From: Acidimicrobiales bacterium
Lineage (GTDB): Bacteria; Actinomycetota; Acidimicrobiia; Acidimicrobiales; Microtrichaceae
NCBI GenBank assembly: GCA_038245795.1
Contig: JBBRSC010000001.1
Location: 1 to 38,060, forward strand
Direction of reading: 5' to 3'
Length of the DNA stretch: 38,060 nt
A model generated the notes under the pieces. The model saw nothing but the letters and a program-made list of their open reading frames with translations. It was not told the DNA's origin and searched no databases. Each line of letters begins with the position of its first letter. The stretch's first letter is position 1. A program made the position numbers and the translations under genes. Below, piece by piece: positions 2,530 to 36,665 of this stretch.

Positions 2530-3758
2530 CCACCATCGAGATCCTCGACAATCCGTTGCGCGGGCGAAGCCCGACCCGCGCTGACGGCGCTCACTTCAAC
2601 CCGACGGCGTTTCATCGACGCCTGCCGGGATATCAGCCCACGCCGCTCGTCTCGTTGACCGATCTCGCCGCCGAACTCGGGATCCGCCAGCTGTTGGTGA
2701 AAGACGAATCGAGTCGGCTCGGCCTGCCCGCGTTCAAGTTCCTCGGGGCCTCGTGGGCCAGCTATCGGTCGCTGATCGAGCGCCTGGGCCACGAGCCGGC
2801 GTGGTCCACCCTTGACGAGCTCGCGGATGCTCTGGTGCCCCTCGGACCGATGTCGCTTGCCACGGCAACTGATGGCAATCACGGTCGAGCCGTCGCCAGC
2901 TTCGCCCGGCGAGTCGGCTTGGGCGCACGGATCTTCGTGCCAGACGGAACGGCGCAGGCGCGCATCGATGCCATTCGATCGGAAGGTGCGACGTGCGAGG
3001 TGGTGCCCGGGGGAACCTACGAAGACGCGGTCGCCCGCGCCGGTGCCGAAGCCGGACCCGATTGCTTGGTGGTGTCCGATACATCGTGGGAGGGGTACAC
3101 CACGGTCCCCGGCTGGGTCATCGACGGCTACATCACCATCTTCAGCGAGATCGACGAGCAGCTCGACGCCGCGGGCCTCAGCCAACCCACCGCGGTGATC
3201 ATCCAGTCCGGTGTCGGAGCATTGGCGGGCGCTGCCGCAGCTCGCTACCGCGGTGCGGTGGCGTCGACTCCTCAGTTGATCTGCGTCGAGCCGGACACGG
3301 CTGACTGCCTGATGGAATCAGCCCGCGCCGGACATCTCGTCGAGGTCCCCGGGCCGCATCCGTCGATCATGGCCGGGTTGAATTGCGGGATGGGCTCGCC
3401 GATTGCGTGGCCATCAGTGGCCGCTGGTTTCGATCGGTTCCTCGCCATCGGCGACAACAACGCGCTGGCAGGAATGCGGGCTCTGGCGCAACGAGGGGTC
3501 GTATCGGGCGAGACGGGTGCGGCCGGTCTCGGGGCGCTCCTCGGGCTGGCAGCCGACGGACGCCTCGCAGACATCGGGCTCGGACAGGACGACGTGGTGC
3601 TGGTGATGTCGACGGAGGGAGCCACCGATCCCTCCTTCTACGAACACGCAGTCGGACGCTCCGCCGATGCGGTTCGGGCACATCGAGCACCGTGCGCGTC
3701 GGGCGCGCAGGCCTCGACGTGCCCGGTCACCCGCTGCCCCGGACCGTGCACAACATGA
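2526..3758 (+). CDS. dpaL: Diaminopropionate ammonia-lyase-like fold-type-II PLP enzyme (YgeX/DpaL-like)
   Basis: ATGA overlap with the LLM stop. [20 protein letters not shown] is the PLP-lysine block, followed by [12 protein letters not shown] and a glycine-rich SGVGALAG loop. Length is about 410 aa. Confidence 0.7.
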
Positions 3759-26800: not shown

Positions 26801-27489
26801 GGCCCCAACGCTCGACACTCGATTCGTTGGAGTTGGACGATGTCGGCGTGACCTTCGACGACGGCACACCAGCTCTCTGCGGGATCACGCTGTCAGTCCG
26901 TCGCGGCGAGCTCATGGTGGTGACTGGTCCGGTCGGATCCGGTAAGACCACATTGCTCCGGGTGCTAGCGGGTCTGATTCCCATCGATCACGGCGAGATC
27001 CGTTGGAACGGCGAAGTGATCGATGATCCGTCGTTGTTCCTTCGTCCACCGAACTGCGCGTACGTATCGCAGACACCGCGTCTCGTTTCCGGCAGCGTCC
27101 AAGAGAATGTGTCGCTCGACCACGAACTCGATGTCGAGGCGGCGCTCGCACTCGCGGAGTTGACCGACGAGGTCGCTGGCTGGGGCGGCGGATCCGCTGT
27201 CGTCGGCCATCGAGGCATGCGTCTGTCAGGCGGGCAGGCACAGCGATTGGCGACGGCTCGGGCGTTGGCGACCAACTCCGAGCTGCTGGTCCTCGACGAT
27301 CTCAGCAGCGCGCTCGACCCGGTGACAGAACGGCAGGTGTGGGCCTCGCTCCGAGCGGCGGGTCACACGGTCATCGCCGCGTCGCACCAACCCGCCGCGT
27401 TCGCAGCGGCAGATCGAATTCTGTATCTCGACGGCGGCGAGCTCAGAGCGCTCGACGACTCACCCGACCGACAGACACATCAAGTCTGA
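23842..27489 (+). CDS. Fused full-length ABC exporter (TMD-NBD-TMD-NBD) with asymmetric NBDs
   Basis: NBD1 has GRTGSGKST, LSQGEAQ, VILDEATAKLD and IAHRL. NBD2 has GPVGSGKTT, LSGGQAQ, LVLDDLSSALD and ASHQ. Two six-helix-type hydrophobic blocks are present. ATG 23842 follows GAGGGA by about 10 nt; an alternative GTG is at 23824. Confidence 0.85.
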   Translation: MAPKLGIVMTRRVRGLGIAAFATLSVGATGSAIAIRLGGSVVDLLLDGRDAVALAVITTLLAVSAPLFNTVSMLFTTQLATSVAVGLRQRLVTHALALPTSFFTDRSVGEITNRISTDVDTVADGMVEQGQSVLWGLIGGVVAWIVAWTVNPWLAVAFLPVCALLAVVAARLGRPAAEASEEMEQLWSEAAGTAEEAFDGRSDLRQTLGRGLIMRRWAEHTAALWAQGSINIASRRRLSVSTVTILRGFQFGVVVVGSVAAINGRVTAGSVWVAFGLVRMFSSRIEDVISNLPRLSELVAAIVRVRDLLDEDPEPDTTVTAQPNEVRWAGPVDLCFNGVTFSYPDDPTAVLHEVKLDVPGGTTAAVVGRTGSGKSTLARLVSRTALPEPGTVFLDGVDVCAIPVHELRRHVSVITQRVELIRATVRDNVSLFDPSIDDRQVIAAFEELGLGPWIDSLPAGIDTVIAGDGAGDHDDIALSQGEAQLVSFARLLVRNPSVVILDEATAKLDPATEELARNATTRMLRGRTAIVIAHRLVTIADADLIVVMDHGVVAESGTAASLLEQPVSMFRVLVEAAGGDGALITRSQREPSTAPAGSGSIRRTNTSRDRRAPALTLDEGADSVIADVELGSAEADDPRPADVHRTTFPLVSTTLGLLRRHRRWSAPGLTGWYLWFLSPAIAAWTWQHLLEELQPGGSIVVPLVVLGASVVIATIGLCLGHTYFSRWWLLTETTMRSNLIAAQLHPTDRSTGRDRVAAGDAVSRLWDADSVIVYTDRFVDVFGSMLFIAAATAVSDTWSTLGWLLLPMVVPASLAWAMRRPISSVAIEHAVVKGIWTGRVAQVCAAATTIKGFAAESAVADHIAELTERRQVLAQRQRGQSSILRGSVLFTAAAGQQLILLVAAIAVRNGEWTTASVVVAIAVSEAISNMPLPGFVAVALVQEAPAVRAKLNRMAQLVPLGVDFDLSAPPVDFVLPPDRPQRVPTPRPQRSTLDSLELDDVGVTFDDGTPALCGITLSVRRGELMVVTGPVGSGKTTLLRVLAGLIPIDHGEIRWNGEVIDDPSLFLRPPNCAYVSQTPRLVSGSVQENVSLDHELDVEAALALAELTDEVAGWGGGSAVVGHRGMRLSGGQAQRLATARALATNSELLVLDDLSSALDPVTERQVWASLRAAGHTVIAASHQPAAFAAADRILYLDGGELRALDDSPDRQTHQV

Positions 27490-27573: not shown

Positions 27574-27624
27574 CGAACTGCGCGTGGATGCGCACCCATA
27601 CGGTGCGTATCCACGCGCAGTTCG
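27574..27624. terminator. Long near-perfect inverted repeat between convergent operons (intrinsic terminator candidate for the dab operon)
   Basis: The 5' arm 27574-27595 pairs with the 3' arm 27603-27624. This gives 22 bp with one G.T position and a 7-nt loop CCATACG. It lies 2 nt from the P-II-like stop (27626). No T-tract on either side. Confidence 0.6.
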
Positions 27625-27625
27625 A

Positions 27626-27964
27626 TCAGGCGTCGGCGGGTGGTGCGAAGTAGCTCGGCCGACTGACCCACGAATCGGAGACGAACATCACCCCGGGTCG
27701 TCGGACGAACAGCTCGCTCAGCGCCGCGATCACCCCGTCGGCCTGCTCGTCGGGGGTCACCGCAAAGAGCATGGTGAGTCCGTCGACATCGTTGAACAAC
27801 ATGCGTCCTTCGTGCCAGCCGTTGTGGCCCAGACCGGACACGTTCGCCAAAACGGTCAGACCCGTGACCCCTGCCGCCGTGAACAGGTCGCGGACCAGAG
27901 CGAGATCGTCGCCCCCGACCACCACGTCGATCCGGGTCATCTTGGTGAGGGAACTCCGCTTCAT
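27626..27964 (-). CDS. P-II-like (GlnB-fold) small signalling protein
   Basis: 112 aa from ATG 27964, which forms an ATGA overlap with the dabA stop. The beta-alpha-beta pattern RIDVVVGGDDLALVRDLFTAAGVTGLTVLANVSGLG...MLFAVTPDEQADGVIAALSE resembles GlnB/SbtB-type proteins. Confidence 0.6.
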   Translation of the reverse strand: MKRSSLTKMTRIDVVVGGDDLALVRDLFTAAGVTGLTVLANVSGLGHNGWHEGRMLFNDVDGLTMLFAVTPDEQADGVIAALSELFVRRPGVMFVSDSWVSRPSYFAPPADA

Positions 27965-30654
27965 GCGACGACCTCTGAGCTTTCTGTGTGAAGAGTTTTC
28001 TGGCCGGGCTTCTCGAACGTCACGGGATCGTTCCCACGGGACGCCGACAGCCACTCGCCGGTCCTCGATCGTCGCGCCCAGCTCCCGGTGTCGTCATCTC
28101 GAGCGACCGCCGTCACCCAACCATTCCCGAACAGGCGAGTGAGCACGGGGTTTCTCGCAAGGACCGACTCCAGCAGCGATGTCGGCGCCTCCACCACCAG
28201 CAACAGCCGCATCGGCTCGTGCACATCGATGCCCCTGTTCGACACCGACTCGACTGGCAACCCCGAACGAAGGTCTCCCCCCGAACCCTCCAACACGCCA
28301 AGATCTCCGATCACGTTGTGGAGGGGCTTCACCCCGGCTCCGAATGTCCCCCGCTCCACCGTCGAAGCGAAGTACTGCGAGCTGATCCAGTGCGCCACGA
28401 CCATGGGGCCGGTGAGAAGTGCTTCAAGTACCGTGCCCGAACCATCCTCGGCGGCCTCGTAGGAATGTAGAAACACCCGCCGCCCGAGATCGACACCGGA
28501 CGTCAGTGTTCGAGGACCCACGACGAACGCTGCGTTGTTCGCCAGACCCCACTCGGGAACTACCTGCGCCCAATCGTCCGCCCGAGCACGGATGCTTCGC
28601 AGGCTCGAGGTTCGGGTCCGTCGTCGCCGTGAGCCCAGCGGTTGAACCAGCGTGGTGGAGCGCTCCAGGGCGAGCGCTCCACCAGCGCGGTCGAGCGCCA
28701 ATTTGAGCGCCGCGAGTTCTGCGCGATGCGATTCCGGTACGTCATCGACATCCAGGAGGATGATCTCATCGGTTGTGGTGTGGTGCTCCCCCGCCACGAA
28801 GTAGGTGTCGCCGAAGTCCGTTCCGTGTGCAGCCAGCGCCGCCCGTACCGACGGTCGATTGAGCAGCGACGCCGCCGTGCGTGCGTTGTCCCCACCGGCC
28901 CGACCGCCGCACGCCCCGCAATCCAACGCCGACCGAAAGGGATTGTTGATGTGGTGGCTGCCGTGGCCACACAGGAGCACCAGCCGACCGAATCCGCGCC
29001 GCTGGCCCAGGGTTGTGACGATCACATGCGCGGTCGCAATTTGATCCGCCAGATCCATCCCAGTTCCGTTGCCCTGTCGATCGAGTCCCATGCGGGTCAC
29101 GATCGGCGGCACACTTCGCCGGCGGACCGATCGTCGAAACGAGCCGTACAGGCGCGGGGAGGCCGTGGCCAACATCGCCAGCGGACCGAGCACCCACCCG
29201 GCGGTCTCCGCCAGGCTGAACTTCGTCGCCGAGTTCGCCTTCGCTTCCTTCCAGGCGTCCGTGAGCGAGTCCGCCATGTTCAGACCCTCCGCATGCCGCT
29301 CGGTCTGGTCGCCGATCGGCACCTCAGCAATGACCGTTCGCGGGTTGAGGATCACCGGGCATGAGGCTTGGGCGGCGCCGGCATCGAGCGGTTCCACCGC
29401 GACCGGCAACCCGAAGAATCCCGCGTAACCAACGGTCTCGACGGACTCTCCCAATTCGGATTCGAGATGTCGACGGAGCCCCTCAGACCGCGGATCGATA
29501 CAGAAAACGGCGGTGAAGGTTGGCCGCGCATCAGTGTCGACGGGTATCGCCGAGGGCCTCGGGGGGTCATCCAACGAGGCGAGCAGCCCGAGCCGATAGT
29601 TGGTTTCGTAGGCGTCCTGCCAGATTTCGAATCGAGCAGCCATCGGCACAAGATCAAGAACCCGGCGAACGGCAGCCAACGTCGGCAACGAGACCGCGTC
29701 GGGCGCTTCAGGGCCCGCAATGACGAGCGCGTCCAACACCCGACGCGCCCGTTCCTCACCGTCCGGCATGGGAGCAACTGGGGCACCAGCGCTCGCTGCC
29801 TGATCCGCGACACGCCGTAACAGACCCTCCTCGACCGCTGCCGCCTCGACTGCGAGTCGCAGTGCGAGGAAGTCCACGAGTCGGTCCGGCCCGTTGGCTC
29901 CCGGACCGGTGAGCGCCCCGGCCCAACCCGCCAAGCGGCAGAGATGTCGTTGGAAGTACTCGATCTGGTCGTGTTGCTCGACTGCGAGCAGGACGAGGAG
30001 TTCGAGCAGCGCGTCGTCGGCTCGTGCGGGGAGCGCCGAGACGAATCGCTGGGCATCCGATCCCGCTAACCGCGCAAGACCCGGATCGCGACCAGCGAGT
30101 CCCCGCCATGCTTGGTACAACCCGCCATCTCGGTTCGGCATCGACCACGGCGCCGTGTCATCAAGGAACGATGCCATCCACCTCGCGACATAGGCATCGA
30201 TGCCGTCTGCCAGAGATGAACCGGTGGCATGGTCGACCCATTCGGCTCGCGTGATCGGAACCAGTCGCGCCTCATCGATCGATGGCCCGACCAGGAGATC
30301 AAGTCGCACCAGATCCACCGGATCGATGGCATAACCGGCGATCCGCACAGTGCCCCCGGTGCGGAGTTGGGGGAAGCGTTCCGCGATGGCGTCGATGAGG
30401 TCCGCATCAGAAATACGACCGGCCAAATGCAACTCGCGCCAACGTTGTTCGGTCATCGACATCGTCACCCCGCGGAGCCGCCGAGCAGCGTTCACGGCCA
30501 ATTCAACGGGGAGGTCTTCGAGGCCCGTCAACGGGTTGACGGCGACGAATCGCTGCACCGGCCACACTGGGGGGAGGATCCGTGCGGCAATCCCGACCCG
30601 CGCATGGATCCGACCGCGACGCTCATTGTCCGTCGATGTGTTCATGACGTTCAT
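27961..30654 (-). CDS. dabA: DabA (DUF2309/PF10070), beta-carbonic-anhydrase-like subunit of the DAB/MpsAB inorganic-carbon pump
   Basis: 897 aa. QRFVAVNPL N-terminal block. Zn-site motifs FCIDPRSEGLRRHLE (Cys385/Asp387 by my count) and CGHGSHHINNPFRSALDCGACGG (His564/Cys579). Overlaps the 3' end of the NuoL-like gene. Confidence 0.85.
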   Translation of the reverse strand: MNVMNTSTDNERRGRIHARVGIAARILPPVWPVQRFVAVNPLTGLEDLPVELAVNAARRLRGVTMSMTEQRWRELHLAGRISDADLIDAIAERFPQLRTGGTVRIAGYAIDPVDLVRLDLLVGPSIDEARLVPITRAEWVDHATGSSLADGIDAYVARWMASFLDDTAPWSMPNRDGGLYQAWRGLAGRDPGLARLAGSDAQRFVSALPARADDALLELLVLLAVEQHDQIEYFQRHLCRLAGWAGALTGPGANGPDRLVDFLALRLAVEAAAVEEGLLRRVADQAASAGAPVAPMPDGEERARRVLDALVIAGPEAPDAVSLPTLAAVRRVLDLVPMAARFEIWQDAYETNYRLGLLASLDDPPRPSAIPVDTDARPTFTAVFCIDPRSEGLRRHLESELGESVETVGYAGFFGLPVAVEPLDAGAAQASCPVILNPRTVIAEVPIGDQTERHAEGLNMADSLTDAWKEAKANSATKFSLAETAGWVLGPLAMLATASPRLYGSFRRSVRRRSVPPIVTRMGLDRQGNGTGMDLADQIATAHVIVTTLGQRRGFGRLVLLCGHGSHHINNPFRSALDCGACGGRAGGDNARTAASLLNRPSVRAALAAHGTDFGDTYFVAGEHHTTTDEIILLDVDDVPESHRAELAALKLALDRAGGALALERSTTLVQPLGSRRRRTRTSSLRSIRARADDWAQVVPEWGLANNAAFVVGPRTLTSGVDLGRRVFLHSYEAAEDGSGTVLEALLTGPMVVAHWISSQYFASTVERGTFGAGVKPLHNVIGDLGVLEGSGGDLRSGLPVESVSNRGIDVHEPMRLLLVVEAPTSLLESVLARNPVLTRLFGNGWVTAVARDDDTGSWARRSRTGEWLSASRGNDPVTFEKPGQKTLHTESSEVVA

Positions 30655-32137
30655 CCTTCGACCGGACCGAGGTCAGCGGGGCTGGGCGACGGGCCGTGTC
30701 GCGACGGCCCGGATCGCCGAGGTCAGCGCACCTGACCCACAGTGTGTCGACGAGGCGACCAGGTCGCTTCCCCCACAACATGATCCATCCGGCAACGCAC
30801 ACGGCGAGCACCAGCGCCGCGCTCGTCTCGACGAACGCGCCGCCCGCGATGTCGCCGTTGATACTCCCGACGGAACCACCGACCCGCAACGCCGCTTCGA
30901 TCGCGTCGACCGCAAAGAGCCACATCGTCACGCTCACGATGAGCCCAACGGCCGCCAGGGCGGTGCGGGTAACACCATGACTCCGACGTCCCCACACGAT
31001 CGCCGATTGGAGAACGAGGGCCGACAGCAACGCGAGCGGAAGCCAGCCAGCGTCGTGGCGGAGTATGTCGGGCTCCACGATGAGGACGACCCCGGTCATC
31101 AACAGCGCCGCGACTCCCACCGGCACCGCAATTGCGGCGACCGAGGGATTCGGCAGCTTCCGTCCAGCTCCCTGGCGTCGCTGCTCGGTATGAGCGACTG
31201 TCGAGCCACTTTCGAGGAACAGGTAGGCCTTGAACATTCCGTGTGCGATCAGGTGAACGACGGCCGGGCCCAGCAATCCGAGGCCGCACTGGACCGTCAT
31301 GAACCCCATCTGGGCGATCGTTGACCAGATGAGCGCCCCCTTGACGTCCGCCCGGGTTCTCATCACGGCAACGCCGATGATCACCGAGCAGATCCCGAGC
31401 ACGAGGACGGTCGCCTGCACGATCCAGGACGTCGAGACGACCGGTGCGGATCGAATCAACAGAATGCCGCCGCCGTTGACCACTCCCGCGTGCAGGAGCG
31501 CCGACACCGGGGTCGGCGTATCTACTGAACGACGAAGCCAACCATGGAATGGAACCAAGGCGCCTCGTGTGCTGGCAGCGACGGCGAGCAGCAGGCCGGC
31601 GCTGATCGTGAGCAGCACGTGGTTCGGTCGTGACGCAAAGCCGTCCGCCGCACGGGCACCTTCTGCAGAGCTCAGAATCCACGCGGCGCCGATCATCGCG
31701 ACGTCTCCGATGAGGAACGTTCGTTGCGCTGAACGGCTCGCGGCGCGTCCGCCTGCTCGACCGTCATGTCGCAGGACCAACGTTGTGGCGGCGCTCACCG
31801 CCAACCAGGCCACGGTCATCGCCCACCAGGACGCTGCCAACGCAACACCGACCGTCGCCGCGCCGACGAGGGCGGCCGCTGGGAAGAACCGCTCGCCATG
31901 CGGTTCGGCCGCCAGCGAGCGGCGAGCAAAGGCGTGAACAAGCAAGGTCATCGCGCACACGAACACCCCCAGTGCCGACCCGAATCGATCCGCATTCAGG
32001 ATGGGCAAGCTGCCGAGGTGCACGGCCACTGGTGAATCACCAGCGAGGACGAAGAGCGCCGAACACGCCACGAGCCCACCCGACACCGACGCCATCGGAA
32101 GGAAGACCTGTGCGGGGCTCGACACACGGGAAGACAT
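30623..32137 (-). CDS. dabB: DabB (NuoL/MrpA-like proton-conducting membrane subunit, PF00361-type)
   Basis: 504-aa polytopic protein with NuoL-like blocks (WLRRSVDTPTPVSALLHAGVVNGGGILL, AQMGFMTVQCGLG, HLIAHGMFKAYLFL). It sits immediately upstream of DUF2309 and no other nuo genes are present. Confidence 0.8.
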   Translation of the reverse strand: MSSRVSSPAQVFLPMASVSGGLVACSALFVLAGDSPVAVHLGSLPILNADRFGSALGVFVCAMTLLVHAFARRSLAAEPHGERFFPAAALVGAATVGVALAASWWAMTVAWLAVSAATTLVLRHDGRAGGRAASRSAQRTFLIGDVAMIGAAWILSSAEGARAADGFASRPNHVLLTISAGLLLAVAASTRGALVPFHGWLRRSVDTPTPVSALLHAGVVNGGGILLIRSAPVVSTSWIVQATVLVLGICSVIIGVAVMRTRADVKGALIWSTIAQMGFMTVQCGLGLLGPAVVHLIAHGMFKAYLFLESGSTVAHTEQRRQGAGRKLPNPSVAAIAVPVGVAALLMTGVVLIVEPDILRHDAGWLPLALLSALVLQSAIVWGRRSHGVTRTALAAVGLIVSVTMWLFAVDAIEAALRVGGSVGSINGDIAGGAFVETSAALVLAVCVAGWIMLWGKRPGRLVDTLWVRCADLGDPGRRDTARRPAPLTSVRSKDERHEHIDGQ

Positions 32138-32144
32138 TCGCCCT

Positions 32145-32173
32145 ATCGTAACTTACGATTTTTAATTCGTCAA
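32145..32173 (-). promoter_or_regulatory. Near-consensus promoter of dabB, leaderless geometry
   Basis: The minus strand reads TTGACG-N17-TACGAT, then 7 nt (AGGGCGA), then ATG 32137. It sits in a locally AT-rich 64-nt gap. The palindrome CGTAAcTTACG (32147-32157) overlaps the -10. Confidence 0.5.
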
Positions 32174-32201
32174 TTATTCTTCGGTAGTTGCAGTGGTCAT
32201 G

Positions 32202-33830
32202 TCATCCCGACCGAACCGTCCGATCCGCCACCCTCGCCGCGTCAGCCTGCCGATCGGCGAGCCGTTCCAAATCGGCGGTCAGGCGTTGCCCATCAAGGTC
32301 TCCGGCGCTCGCCAGAATTCGCGCAGCCAGCAGCCCGGCATTGCGACCGTTGTCGATGGCGACGGTTGCCACCGGAACACCCCGCGGCATCTGCACGATC
32401 GACAACAACGAATCGAGACCCTGAAGATGACGGAGCGCGACCGGCACGCCGATCACGGGCAACGTGGTCACCGCCGCCAACATCCCCGGGAGGTGCGCCG
32501 CTCCCCCAGCGCCGGCGATGATCACGCGTAACCCCCGAGCCGCCGCGGCTCGTCCGTAGGCGATCATGTCGTCGGGAGTCCGGTGGGCAGAGACCACTCG
32601 AATCTCGGTTGGCACGCCCAGCTCAGCCAATGCCTCGACTGCCGGGCGCATCACCTCGAGGTCCGAATCACTCCCCATGACAATGCCAACGACCGCGCGC
32701 ATCATCAATGTGTCAGCACGCTGATGCGCCAGAACCGTGGTAACCGCCAAGGAGTCGCCCAGCGCGGTGACATGGCCGATCTTGCGCCCGGTTCGCGGGG
32801 TCTTGTGATAGTCGTGGACGAACTCGACGTCCGATGGTGGGTCATCGAGCACACGCGGGTACGGCTCCTCCGACGACGCGATCAGGTTGACCATCGTGGC
32901 GGCGGGAACGACAAGATCACACGACCCCAGCGCCATGCCCGCCACCGCCCGTAGGTGATTCTCGAATTGTGATGTGCGGCAGGCCTCGATGGTGAGGTGT
33001 CCGCTGTTGTGGGGGCGCGGCGCCACCTCGTTCACGAGGAGCTGACCATTGACGACGAACATCTCCACGGCCATCACCCCGACCGCTCCAATCACCTCGG
33101 CCACCCGTCGCGCGAGCTGGTCCGCGGCCATGACCAGTGCCTCGTCGAGTCCGGTCGGCATGCTGACTTCGCGGCAGATGCCGTCGGTCTGGGTGGTATC
33201 GACCAACGGATAGGTGTCGATCTCGCCGGTCCGCCCCCGGACGGTCAGTACGGCGATTTCGGCATCGAGTTCGAGGTGAGGTTCCACCACCATCAACGTC
33301 CCGATGTCATCGAGCAGTTGCTCCGCCTCGCTCCGTCCCGACACCACGAACACGCCCCGCCCGTCATAGCCACCCCGTGGCAGCTTCATCACCAACGGCC
33401 ACCCGAATTCGGCCGCGAACTCGGCGATCGCGTCGAGACCGTCAACGATCGCAAAGGGGGGAACAGCAATGCCCAACTCGGCGAAACGCTGTCGCTGATA
33501 CGCCTTGTCCGAGAACGCCAGGACCGATGAACTGGGGAACACCACATGACCGGCTGCCTCGACTGCGTCGATGGCCGCAACGGTTGCATCGTCGACCGGC
33601 TCATGGTCGAAGGTGACGACATCGACCTGCTCCGCGAATGACAGGAGCGTCGCAGTATCCAGCCGGTCGGCTCGCTCGACGGCCACGCCGAGCCCCGCAA
33701 CGCTCTCGTCGTTGGTTCGGGCCAGCACCCGGGTCGTCATGCCCATGTCGACCGCCGCCTCAACCATCATCATGGCGAGCTGACCACCCCCGACAATGCC
33801 CACTGACGGGATCCCGACGGAAGGGATCAC
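32202..33830 (-). CDS. purK-purE: Fused N5-CAIR synthetase (PurK, ATP-grasp) and N5-CAIR mutase (PurE, class I)
   Basis: Single 542-aa frame. The N-terminal part has [10 protein letters not shown]..., then the ATP-grasp body. From the Met-Met at 32705 the C-terminal 167 aa read [11 protein letters not shown]...VVSAHRTPD...[13 protein letters not shown] (PurE). There is no stop between the domains. GTGA overlap with the wHTH stop. Confidence 0.85.
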
Positions 33831-34153
33831 GATCTGATCTCAGGTGGTGGCGCCATAACTGCCTTCAGGAGTACACCGACACGATGGCTGGACTCCACCG
33901 GGTGTCGCAGCCGTAATTTGTCATTCACCGTATAGCTGTTTCTTCGACCCACGCGCTCCCGCGTGAGATACCCCTCATCGATCAGGTCCGCGATGATCTT
34001 CTGCGTTGACCGTTCGGTGATGCCAACCCGTTCGGCGATTTCCCATCCCCGGAGATCTGGATCTTCCGACAGGCAGACCAGCACGTGGCCGTGGTTCGAC
34101 AGAAACGTCCAGGACGGACGATCCTCGGGATCGCTTGCAGCGGCTCTGCTCAC
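33827..34153 (-). CDS. Winged helix-turn-helix transcriptional regulator (ArsR/MarR-like)
   Basis: 108 aa. [39 protein letters not shown] is a typical HTH plus wing. GTG start at 34153. Confidence 0.65.
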
Positions 34154-34209: not shown

Positions 34210-34650
34210 TCAGGTTCCGAAGACTGAGCGGATCTTTGCGCCAGCGTCGTTGGCGCGGGACCTGAACGTCTCGAGGTCGATCTTGTCGCGTGCCCCGGCC
34301 TCGACCGCGGCCAGCTGGTCGAGCAGCGCGCTTCGATCGGCGGCGACGATCCACGGCGCCTCATCGAGGAGGGTCTGAAGTTGCGTACGATCCCCTGCCA
34401 GCGGCGACAGAACTCCGGCCGAAATGCTGTCGCCGCCGCCGCCGATCGCCTGCTCATATTCGATGTCGAGCCGCTCGATACCCGTCGCAACGTCGGCAGC
34501 CGAACTGCGCACTGACACCACACGATCCTGGATGGACGGCACCTGTTGGCGCCCGACCGCCCAGCCGATTCCCAGCCCGACCACGAGCGCAGCGACCGCA
34601 GCGATCACGGTGCGGCGAGTTCGGCGACCAGAGGAAACATAGAGGGCCAT
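34210..34650 (-). CDS. Hypothetical membrane-anchored protein (single N-terminal TM helix plus helical domain)
   Basis: 146 aa. RRTRRTVIAAVAALVVGLGIGWAV forms the anchor. The start overlaps the upstream stop (TGATG). I recognise no family. Confidence 0.5.
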   Translation of the reverse strand: MALYVSSGRRTRRTVIAAVAALVVGLGIGWAVGRQQVPSIQDRVVSVRSSAADVATGIERLDIEYEQAIGGGGDSISAGVLSPLAGDRTQLQTLLDEAPWIVAADRSALLDQLAAVEAGARDKIDLETFRSRANDAGAKIRSVFGT

Positions 34651-36665
34651 CAGCGAGAGCTTCCTACGAGATAGGTGACGTCAGCCCCGGCGTAGGGGTT
34701 GGCGGCCGCGTTGAGCGTCGCCAGTTCAATGACGTGTCGATCGTCGATGATCCACACGGTCGGACGCAAGGTGACCGGTCCGCGGAAGCGGGTCAGCCGC
34801 TCGATGGTTTCACCCAAATCTGCTTCGGAGGACATTTCTCCTGCGACCGACACCACGTCATCGCCATATCGGTCGAGCACATCAAGCGTTGCGCCATCAT
34901 GCACCAGCCAGTAGCGACCCGTTGCCAAGACTGGCTGATCGGGGAAGCGGTCGACCATGTCGTGATGGCTCAGCTCCGATCGCCCCGGCAGGGCCCCCGA
35001 CATCAGCCCGACCGCGCCCGTAGCAACGGCCCGCATGGTGCTCCGTTCCGGAACCTCCTCGACGCGCACCTCGATGCTGGTCGGGCTGGCACCAGCGTTC
35101 AGCACCTCGCGTTCGACCTCGTCAATCATCGCGGCGATCACGTCCGGGTGCAGACCGTCGGTCGTTCGTTCCCGCTCGGCTCGCAGTAACGACAGCGCAT
35201 CCCCGATGGACGAGATGACCTCGGCGTGATCAGGAATCACGAGGTCCCAACCGAGCATCGTCGCCACGTACCGTGCCAACCCGCCGGCTCCGCCGCCAAC
35301 GCCCACCAACGAGGGCTCCTCCAGTTCAGACGACTTCGCAACCGTCAACGCCAACTCGCAGATCGCCTCACCTGATGCGGTCAGCATGTGGGTCGCGATC
35401 GTGTGAGCATCGAGACGCATCATCTCGGCGGCAACTTCGAATGCCGCCAGCGAGGCAGCGGGCGGCGCGTGGCAGTAGTCACCAGCAACCGTGATTCCGA
35501 GAGCGTTGGCAGCGCAGGTATTGGTGAGCGCAATGCGTCGACCGTCCGCCAACCGCAGAGTCAGGTAGTCAGCCGGATCCCCGGGGAGCGCCGCGACCAG
35601 TTCCGCTATCGCTCCATCGAGTTCGGCGACGTCGAGATAGCTGGCGTATGCCAAGCCCGCAATATGCGCCGACCTCGGCCCCACGCCGTACACCCGACCA
35701 TGTCGAACCCGGAGCATCGATCCACCAGCGACTCCGACGACACGCACGTCGACGGAGCGCAGGGCCGTGGCATGTGAGGCGACGCGCACGTAGGACAGCG
35801 AGGGCCGACCGTTGCGGATGGCCGCGATGTTGGTGGAGGTCCCGCCGATCTCGACAACGATGGCGTCGGTCACGCCGGTGTACCGCAACGCCCCTGCGAC
35901 CGACGCTGAGGGACCGGAATACAGCGTTCGCACCGGGGCCGCACTGAACCCCTGCAGGTCCGTTGCCCCACCGTCGCTTCGCATCACCATGATCGGGGCC
36001 TCGATCCCGGCGGCCTTCACGCCACGTTGGACGAATTCCGCGGTGGTCATGGCGATCGGCAGGATCGACGCGTTCAACGCCGCTGTCACGGCACGGAGTT
36101 CCAAGCCGTAGAGACCACTCAGCTCGGTCGAGGTACACACGGGGAGCCCGAGTTCACGTGCCATCTCCGCCACCGTTGTCTCGTTGGTGTCGTCGTCGGG
36201 GGAGAAGGCTTCGGCCACACAGACCGCTGAGACTCCTGCGTCGACGAACCCGACGAGCGCTCGACGAATGTCTTCGACCGGCAGCCCATCGGTGACATCG
36301 AAGAACGAGTGTTTGACGGGAAGCCGTCGGCCGGGCGACAACTCGACATTTCCCAATCGGGTGCGTTTCTCGACAGCTTTGAGATCGGGTCGGCGGCCGA
36401 GACCGACCATTCCCACGGTCCCGACGTCGCCCTCGAGCAAGGCGTTCACGGCCTGGGTGGTCGAGTGGGTGACGAGATCGATCTGATCTGCGCCCACTTG
36501 ATCGGCGAGCTGCTTCACTGCCTCGACCACGCCGACCGCGACACCGTCGTCGGCGGAATGCGAGGTGGGCACCACACTCGATGCCACGATCTCGCGGGTC
36601 AGGAGATCCACGGCGACCGCTTTGGTGAAGGTTCCCCCGACATCGACACCAACGCGTACGCCCAT
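34650..36665 (-). CDS. Hydantoinase/oxoprolinase family protein (HyuA/A-subunit-like)
   Basis: 671 aa. N-terminal RVGVDVGGTFTKAV (sugar-kinase/HSP70/actin-type phosphate-1 motif of Hydant_A_N), and a second GGTSTN motif mid-protein. Confidence 0.7.
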   Translation of the reverse strand: MGVRVGVDVGGTFTKAVAVDLLTREIVASSVVPTSHSADDGVAVGVVEAVKQLADQVGADQIDLVTHSTTQAVNALLEGDVGTVGMVGLGRRPDLKAVEKRTRLGNVELSPGRRLPVKHSFFDVTDGLPVEDIRRALVGFVDAGVSAVCVAEAFSPDDDTNETTVAEMARELGLPVCTSTELSGLYGLELRAVTAALNASILPIAMTTAEFVQRGVKAAGIEAPIMVMRSDGGATDLQGFSAAPVRTLYSGPSASVAGALRYTGVTDAIVVEIGGTSTNIAAIRNGRPSLSYVRVASHATALRSVDVRVVGVAGGSMLRVRHGRVYGVGPRSAHIAGLAYASYLDVAELDGAIAELVAALPGDPADYLTLRLADGRRIALTNTCAANALGITVAGDYCHAPPAASLAAFEVAAEMMRLDAHTIATHMLTASGEAICELALTVAKSSELEEPSLVGVGGGAGGLARYVATMLGWDLVIPDHAEVISSIGDALSLLRAERERTTDGLHPDVIAAMIDEVEREVLNAGASPTSIEVRVEEVPERSTMRAVATGAVGLMSGALPGRSELSHHDMVDRFPDQPVLATGRYWLVHDGATLDVLDRYGDDVVSVAGEMSSEADLGETIERLTRFRGPVTLRPTVWIIDDRHVIELATLNAAANPYAGADVTYLVGSSR

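Follow-up and report, generated by a model that had tools for sequence, protein, structure and literature searches.

A predicted two-subunit CO2 pump with an overlapping CPII-type P-II-like gene at a carboxysome-free locus of an Acidimicrobiales bacterium

Results

Organization of the dabB-dabA-P-II unit

We analyzed a stretch of 38,060 nucleotides (nt), hereafter the window, which comprises positions 1 to 38,060 of contig JBBRSC010000001.1 in assembly GCA_038245795.1 of an Acidimicrobiales bacterium (Actinomycetota). Its minus strand carries three consecutive genes that appear to encode a CO2 pump of the DAB (MpsAB) type and a small P-II-like protein of the CPII type. The first gene, dabB (30623..32137), encodes a NuoL/MrpA-like membrane subunit of 504 amino acids (aa) that is predicted to conduct protons. 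It is followed by dabA (27961..30654), whose product of 897 aa, counted from the first ATG, is a putative cytoplasmic subunit resembling beta-carbonic anhydrases (beta-CA), and by the P-II-like gene of 112 aa (27626..27964). All three genes matched the expected Pfam families, namely PF00361 for DabB (E 2.7e-29), PF10070 (DUF2309) over the full length of DabA (E 3.7e-219) and PF00543 for the P-II-like protein (E 1.5e-16; 61 bits against a cut-off of 25). An earlier model-made reading of this DNA, referred to here as the sequence-only reading, had named the two pump genes, compared their B-then-A order with that of mpsAB, recognized beta-CA-like zinc ligands in DabA and placed the start of a 112-aa P-II-fold gene within the dabA stop codon; each of these claims held in our analysis.

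The genes are tightly packed. The 5' end of dabA overlaps the 3' end of dabB by 23 to 32 nt, the range being set by the choice of the dabA start, for which the fourth codon (M4 at 30645) is an alternative to the first ATG. At the other end of dabA, the tetranucleotide ATGA at 27961-27964 is common to the dabA stop codon TGA and the start codon ATG of the P-II gene (...GTC GCA TGA AGC... in the minus-strand reading), and a Shine-Dalgarno-like GAGG lies 7 nt upstream of this start.

A GC-rich hairpin (27574..27624, minus strand) begins 2 nt past the stop codon of the P-II gene and separates it from a convergent ABC-transporter gene that ends at 27489. The sequence-only reading was right about the presence of this hairpin after the P-II gene; it gave the length as 22 bp, and we measured 23 bp. 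The arms (27574-27596 and 27602-27624) have 23 nt each, are 96% complementary and enclose a loop of 5 nt. The minimum free energy was -54.8 kcal/mol over 86 nt (z = -7.35), and none of 200 shuffled sequences folded as well. There is no U-tract 3' of the hairpin, and a scan for consensus terminators missed it because no T-run follows. The arm is unique in the window, with no further copy that would mark it as a repeated element. The hairpin was not kept in the closest relative (locus L001), in which the convergent genes overlap. Its position between the convergent P-II and ABC-transporter genes makes a role in termination likely, and we infer that it is probably a terminator lacking a U-tract, possibly a bidirectional one.

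The pump subunits

Both subunits have their closest solved relatives in the DAB2 complex of Halothiobacillus neapolitanus, which are DabA2 for the window DabA (9rd0_A, E 1.5e-102) and DabB2 for the window DabB (9rd0_B, E 4.1e-34), with NuoL/ND5 of complex I ranking behind the latter. Position by position, the motifs FCIDPRSE, CGHGS and LDCGACGG of the window DabA match the zinc site in the DabA2 structure. C385, H564 and C579 occupy the positions of the zinc ligands Cys351, His524 and Cys539, and D387 and R389 those of the Asp-Arg dyad (Asp353 and Arg355). In addition, E483 aligns with the finger-motif residue Glu444 of DabA2, which is essential for DAB2 activity. In dabA genes lying beside a CPII-like gene these residues were almost always kept: C385 and D387 in 78 of 78 covered loci, H564 in 82 of 82, C579 in 81 of 82 and E483 in 76 of 80. 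Pairwise scores of the window DabA do not place it nearer to DabA1 or to DabA2. Neither DabA nor the P-II-like protein matched an NCBIfam model, and DabB matched only NuoL models below their cut-offs.

The window DabB is 34% identical to DabB1 of Halothiobacillus diazotrophicus. D145, the Asp of the ion pair at the transmembrane interface, is kept across relatives together with H216 and H299. The Lys that partners this Asp in DabB2 (K235) is replaced by Arg191 in the window DabB, and Arg is also found in most of the DabB proteins examined. We considered this replacement in transmembrane segment 7 as a clade-specific change of the proton path and rejected it, since Arg is found here more often than any other residue and occurs in two of the three DAB1 loci as well.

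In DAB1, a third subunit, DabC, is required; it is a membrane protein that resembles half of NuoM (2026 DAB1 cryo-electron microscopy preprint). The gene for such a protein (about 250 aa, without a Pfam match) is absent between dabB and dabA of the window, where the overlap of the two genes leaves no room for it. By its predicted composition, the window unit is a two-subunit, MpsAB-like DAB (DabB-DabA), that is, a putative energy-coupled CO2-hydrating pump.

The P-II-like protein and the CPII family

When the 112-aa protein was compared with the sequences in the PDB, the CPII entries 5d4n and 5d4l were found at E 1.7e-16, whereas GlnB, GlnK and other canonical P-II proteins reached only E 0.2-0.8. 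An AlphaFold2 monomer model built from 47 homologues (predicted local distance difference test, pLDDT, 84.5) adopted the P-II fold beta-alpha-beta-beta-alpha-beta. With this model, the top 14 Foldseek matches in the PDB were all CPII chains (TM-scores 0.81/0.85, 33% identity), followed by the uncharacterised P-II-like protein TTHA0516 of Thermus and then by cyanobacterial SbtB.

The residues that are invariant in the window protein, its actinobacterial relatives and the CPII of Thiomonas intermedia are concentrated in the T-loop (S43, G44, G46, G49, G53, F57 and N58), the B-loop (G91 and V92) and the C-terminus (R102 and P103). In P-II proteins these three elements build the nucleotide cleft. 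The window protein has RRPGVMFV where the B-loop TGxxGDGKIF of GlnB stands, and at the base of the T-loop the position of Gln39 is taken by His47 (GLGH for GRQ); TGxxGDGKIF and GRQ are the canonical motifs of GlnB/GlnK. The protein contains no Cys at all, ends in ...SRPSYFAPPADA and matched none of the P-II equivalogs of NCBIfam. It is best matched by CPII in both sequence and fold and lacks the GlnB B-loop and the Cys loop of SbtB, and thus it is neither GlnB/GlnK nor SbtB. Judging from the alignments and the model, it is almost certainly a member of the CPII family.

BMC, CsoS2, CsoSCA and Rubisco genes were found neither in the 38-kb window nor in the five related loci L001-L005. As a gene of the CPII family thus lies outside alpha-carboxysome loci, the name of the family, "carboxysome-associated PII", seems to describe one lineage and not a defining property of all its members.

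Co-occurrence of the P-II-like gene with dabA

A search of one genome per GTDB species with an alignment of CPII yielded relatives in 315 genomes, and we examined the 80 best of them. Nearly all of these belong to Actinomycetota, and the carriers included Mycobacterium, Micromonospora, Actinoplanes, Dactylosporangium, Geodermatophilus, Pseudonocardia, Solirubrobacterales and Acidimicrobiales. The company of dabAB in which the sequence-only reading had found the P-II gene is kept elsewhere: dabA was located immediately upstream of it in all 79 loci in which the contig permitted an assessment, and dabB lay upstream of dabA wherever the contig had room. Since the three-gene arrangement is kept in 79 of 79 loci, chance is excluded as its cause. 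The start of the P-II gene overlapped the dabA stop codon in about 76 of 84 loci, in 47 of them by the 4-nt NTGA. Homologues collected from public metagenomes and genomes were likewise all in the order dabB-dabA-P-II. We also considered a fusion of the P-II domain with beta-CA, or another longer P-II fusion, in L032 and L040 and discarded it, since in each of them the translated frame ends at a stop codon behind the P-II domain.

The same junction extends beyond Actinomycetota. Halothiobacillus, Acidithiobacillus and a Nitrobacter-like contig (L086-L088) have operons of the order dabB-dabC-dabA-CPII inside alpha-carboxysome loci, and in these the 4-nt overlap of dabA and CPII is also present. 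The dabA-CPII junction is therefore kept across phyla at a protein identity of 33-34%.

A second scan was seeded with an alignment of DabA and gave 80 metagenome loci with DabA proteins 31-43% identical to that of the window. How often a DUF2309 gene is followed by a P-II reading frame, a point raised in the sequence-only reading, could be judged in the 72 loci whose sequence continues for 350 nt or more past dabA: a CPII gene follows dabA directly in 28 and is lacking in 44. A profile hidden Markov model of CPII recovered the same 28 loci, all at E <= 1e-27, and no weaker matches, so that the distribution is bimodal. The positive loci were concentrated among the DabA proteins nearest to that of the window. 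A tblastn search with DabC gave matches in no more than 2 of these 80 loci. Many related DAB loci do without the P-II gene.

Neighbouring genes

Upstream of dabB, the unit is preceded by an AT-rich spacer of 64 nt (32138..32201, minus strand) that contains promoter-like hexamers and a palindrome. The spacer has three sigma-70-like matches, for instance TTGACG-17-TACGAT, and in the scanned region of 7.5 kb there were 4 such matches where 0.9 were expected. With this AT-rich spacer and its promoter-like hexamers, dabB-dabA-P-II may have a promoter of its own besides read-through from upstream. A perfect 7-1-7 palindrome, ATCGTAAGTTACGAT (minus strand, 32145-32159), overlaps a promoter-like -10 hexamer. 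We tried this palindrome as a family-wide operator of the winged-helix regulator described below and rejected it, as it recurs, with 2 mismatches at the same position, only in the nearest relatives L001 and L002.

Directly upstream of dabB lies a purK-purE fusion (32202..33830, minus strand) of 542 aa, predicted to combine the synthetase of N5-carboxyaminoimidazole ribonucleotide (N5-CAIR), which uses ATP and bicarbonate, with N5-CAIR mutase. Its Pfam domains are, from N- to C-terminus, RS_preATP-grasp, ATP-grasp, PurK_C and AIRC, and an alignment with the separate purK and purE of L001 and L003 gave a clean in-frame junction. In the closest relatives purK and purE are two overlapping genes, and in the window they form one open reading frame of 542 aa; a single-base assembly error is a possible cause of the fusion. 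The order of PurK and then PurE is also that of the domains in fungal Ade2.

These purine genes recur beside DAB operons. In the CPII-seeded survey 22 of the 80 loci, mostly those of Solirubrobacterales and Acidimicrobiia, have purK/purE right after the P-II gene, and in L001 and L002 it is upstream of dabB. Loci with purK/purE by the DAB operon include L003, L006, L010-L012, L017, L023, L025, L026, L028 and L033, as well as L035, L036, L039, L043, L055, L057, L065, L067, L070 and L071. The same genes adjoin DAB loci without a P-II gene (L101, L128, L155 and L162). This recurrent adjacency suggests that the CO2 pump is functionally connected with the step of purine synthesis that depends on bicarbonate. 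Our literature searches on purK and DAB returned no paper describing such a gene linkage.

The stop codon of the next gene (33827..34153, minus strand) overlaps the start of purKE. It encodes a winged-helix, MarR-like regulator of 108 aa, for which the Pfam matches (MarR and HTH_24) were marginal and no close solved structure was found (best PDB match at E 0.02). With a protein encoded beside dabBA-PII in Mycobacterium sp. ML4 it shares 55% identity (E 1e-36), and with the neighbour in L001 it shares 79%. Relatives were present in 53 of 85 CPII-containing loci (the 80 seeded loci and L001-L005), most often divergent from dabB, with 45-80% identity, or about 55% outside the two closest relatives; examples are L004 (11081-11398) and L012 (about 3421-3699). 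It was also found in 7 DAB loci without a P-II gene. The protein is a candidate for a dedicated transcriptional regulator of DAB.

In 17 of the 80 CPII-seeded loci, all of them mycobacterial, a beta-CA gene follows the P-II gene directly. Loci with this arrangement include L004 (10352-10966), L014, L021, L024, L031, L032, L037, L042 and L045, and also L048-L051, L056, L066, L074 and L075. A free cytosolic carbonic anhydrase beside an energy-coupled CO2 pump would short-circuit the concentration of CO2, and therefore the mycobacterial module probably serves the supply of bicarbonate rather than the accumulation of inorganic carbon.

Farther upstream of the regulator-purKE-dab cluster are a 146-aa reading frame without a family match (34210-34650, minus strand) and a gene of the hydantoinase/oxoprolinase A type (34650-36665, minus strand), both kept only in the closest relatives L001 and L002. 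On the other side, positions 1-23700 hold at least six genes of the amidohydrolase family, an adenosine deaminase, a three-part molybdoenzyme of the xanthine-dehydrogenase type, dioxygenases of the 2-oxoglutarate/Fe(II) and TauD types and an ABC uptake system of the NMT1/THI5 type, one of the ABC transporters encoded in the window. This region looks like an island for the catabolism of purines and pyrimidines or of N-heterocycles; pathways of this kind release CO2. Neither an SbtA gene nor amtB or glnA neighbours were found among the window genes scanned.

Discussion

We suggest that the three genes specify a DabBA pump in which dabA is translationally coupled to the gene of a CPII-type gate that would sense nucleotides and bicarbonate, and that DAB is the main target of this CPII-like protein. 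We would give each of these two statements a probability of roughly 0.6. By analogy with the CPII of T. intermedia and with SbtB, the protein would form a homotrimer that binds ADP or AMP in the clefts between its subunits, with bicarbonate enhancing the binding. The ligand state would order the strongly conserved T-loop, which may then dock on the cytoplasmic face of DabA/DabB and throttle the pump once there is enough cytosolic bicarbonate or at a low energy charge, and such throttling would curb the waste of proton-motive force. The part of this scheme that we hold with lower confidence is the sign of the regulation, which we suppose to be inhibition under ample bicarbonate or a low energy charge. 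In this heterotroph-type setting without carboxysomes, the bicarbonate made by the pump would go to enzymes that carboxylate their substrates, for instance PurK, which is encoded next to it, instead of a Rubisco-based CO2-concentrating mechanism, and the small winged-helix regulator nearby would control transcription. Supplying anabolic carboxylations is a plausible task for the pump, considering that PurK uses bicarbonate and ATP.

Several parts of this proposal have precedents. Crystal structures of the CPII of T. intermedia ("carboxysome-associated PII") with ADP, AMP and bicarbonate date from 2016 (PDB 5D4L-5D4P, 5DRK and 5DS7), and papers citing this work state that bicarbonate binds near the nucleotide site and changes nucleotide affinity. 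The carboxysome locus of H. neapolitanus was described in the order nuoL, a transmembrane hypothetical protein, DUF2309 and a PII/SbtB homologue (Sutter et al. 2015, PMC4633670), and in the preprint of Desmarais et al. the figure legend for the region that contains DAB1 names a P-II gene among those drawn. The novelty that the sequence-only reading had implied was therefore lost, as the protein belongs to an already crystallised family and the gene order was already in print; the idea that CPII regulates DAB follows from a neighbourhood of genes that had already been recorded. Two of its other statements fared better. Its analogy with SbtB was reasonable, since the SbtB proteins were the next-best structural matches after CPII and one Thermus protein. 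It was also correct that a regulatory role has not been established for DAB: in the literature that we searched for links of CPII or P-II with DAB or Mps there were only mentions of gene neighbourhood and no experiment on DAB regulation. SbtB itself is the precedent for a P-II-like protein that binds and inhibits a transporter of inorganic carbon. What is less familiar is the setting, that is, a CPII-DAB module that is free of carboxysomes, without dabC, linked to purKE and located in an actinobacterial genome of the heterotroph type.

A number of points weigh against our proposal. The partnership of CPII with DabA/DabB is argued from homology and gene linkage only, and the T-loop that is supposed to make the contact was modelled at low confidence by AlphaFold2. 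The CPII-seeded survey covered the best 80 of 315 genomes and was biased to proteins closely related to the query. A P-II protein often acts on more than one target, so that PurK, beta-CA and the winged-helix regulator are additional or alternative candidates. The words 'PII', 'P-II' and 'CPII' occur nowhere in the two 2026 DAB cryo-electron microscopy preprints. Finally, DAB2 works in E. coli without any P-II protein, and therefore any effect of CPII would be modulatory.

The last point bears on the possibility that this type of DAB needs the P-II-like protein for its structure or assembly, as a third subunit in place of DabC. Translational coupling implies that the protein would be produced with DabA at a fixed ratio, the window DAB is without the dabC that DAB1 requires, and an adjacent dabA was present throughout the CPII-seeded loci examined, all of which would suit a subunit. 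However, proteobacterial CPII occurs together with dabC, so that no replacement has taken place there, and the 44 of 72 related dabB-dabA loci that lack the P-II gene nearly always lack dabC too. DabC is moreover a membrane protein like half of NuoM, whereas the window protein has a soluble P-II fold. These 44 loci, and the sufficiency of DAB2 in E. coli without P-II, speak for CPII being accessory and not a core subunit, and we regard a structural role as quite improbable. We argue that CPII is an accessory component of DAB and that its function is most simply regulatory.

If it is regulatory, the P-II-like protein may still act mainly on something else, such as PurK, beta-CA, a biotin carboxylase or its carrier protein (BCCP) encoded elsewhere in the genome or the winged-helix regulator, with its place beside dabA serving co-expression. 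P-II proteins are known to bind BCCP and other enzymes, and SbtB has targets beyond SbtA, and the genes found 3' of the P-II gene (purK/purE in 22 and beta-CA in 17 of the 80 seeded loci) would be suitable candidates. Yet dabA is the only constant neighbour, the conserved overlap of stop and start codons is specific to dabA, loci with dabBA and P-II exist that have no purK, beta-CA or regulator (L086-L088 among them), and purK and the regulator flank P-II-less DAB loci as well; a main target other than DAB is consequently unlikely. That the protein is an ordinary nitrogen-regulatory P-II of the GlnB/GlnK kind is hardly credible. The PF00543 match would allow it, and public sources name the homologues 'P-II family nitrogen regulator', but canonical proteins scored at E 0.2-0.8 against 1.7e-16 for the CPII structures, the B-loop reads RRPGVMFV and His47 stands for Gln39, and there is neither an amtB or glnA neighbour nor an NCBIfam equivalog match.

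Regulation of DAB by CPII would be of consequence. DAB pumps could be used to build CO2-concentrating mechanisms into crops and industrial microbes, and they support the growth of some pathogens at ambient CO2. Control against futile cycling is still listed as an open question in the 2026 paper on the DAB2 structure. CPII is the obvious candidate for a DAB regulator, and its target has never been demonstrated in the literature that we searched. If CPII gates DAB, this would explain how the pumps avoid futile cycling, with CPII matching the spending of proton-motive force to cytosolic bicarbonate and energy charge. The strict linkage of dabA and CPII reaches into a large actinobacterial clade that is free of carboxysomes and includes cultivated Mycobacterium, Micromonospora, Actinoplanes and Geodermatophilus. 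This linkage and the translational coupling in such a clade therefore indicate DabA/DabB, and not the carboxysome, as the partner of CPII. More tentatively, and with odds that we place a little short of even, CPII might be a dedicated feedback gate of DAB that spans phyla and is not a carboxysome protein, and the carboxysome-free actinobacterial module of winged-helix regulator, dabB, dabA and CPII, often joined by purK/purE or a beta-CA gene, might be a unit that regulates itself while it supplies bicarbonate to anabolic carboxylations such as the formation of N5-CAIR. The purpose of the pump in heterotrophs is suggested by the genes that recur beside it, purK/purE and beta-CA. With two subunits and a sensor, the module is minimal and could be used for complementation and binding work; if our proposal is true, it would be a simpler test system than a chemolithoautotroph.

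Comparison with known systems

The CPII of T. intermedia K12 (Wheatley et al. 2016, J Mol Biol 428:4013) is the best match of the window protein in sequence and fold, with 33-34% identity. The two have residues of the T-loop, the B-loop and the C-terminus in common, and in both cases the gene is directly 3' of dabA with an overlap of 4 nt. They differ in their surroundings, as the window gene is outside a carboxysome locus and has no Rubisco or BMC genes nearby. The host lineage is Actinomycetota and not chemolithoautotrophic Proteobacteria, and compared with the DABs of CPII loci the window unit has no dabC and a shorter DabA (897 versus about 1040 aa).

With DAB2 of H. neapolitanus (PDB 9RD0) the window pump shares the Cys2His zinc site, the Asp-Arg dyad, the finger-motif Glu and the NuoL-like DabB. 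Its B-then-A order is that of DAB1 and of mpsAB in S. aureus and B. subtilis, and its two-subunit composition is that of DAB2 and MpsAB. The window thus joins a DAB2/Mps-like composition with a P-II gene, whereas the literature found places P-II beside DAB1 only. The ndhF-mpsB-canC operon of B. subtilis has a downstream beta-CA gene, a feature that is met in the mycobacterial relatives and not in the window.

The SbtA/SbtB pair is similar in that a P-II-like sensor of adenine nucleotides adjoins, and is proposed to gate, a system for the uptake of inorganic carbon. SbtB is only 13-19% identical to the window protein, and its C-terminal redox loop (the C105/C110 variant is named in structures) is absent from this protein without Cys. 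The partners differ as well, since SbtB acts on the Na+/HCO3- symporter SbtA, and the putative partner in the window is a vectorial CO2 hydratase.

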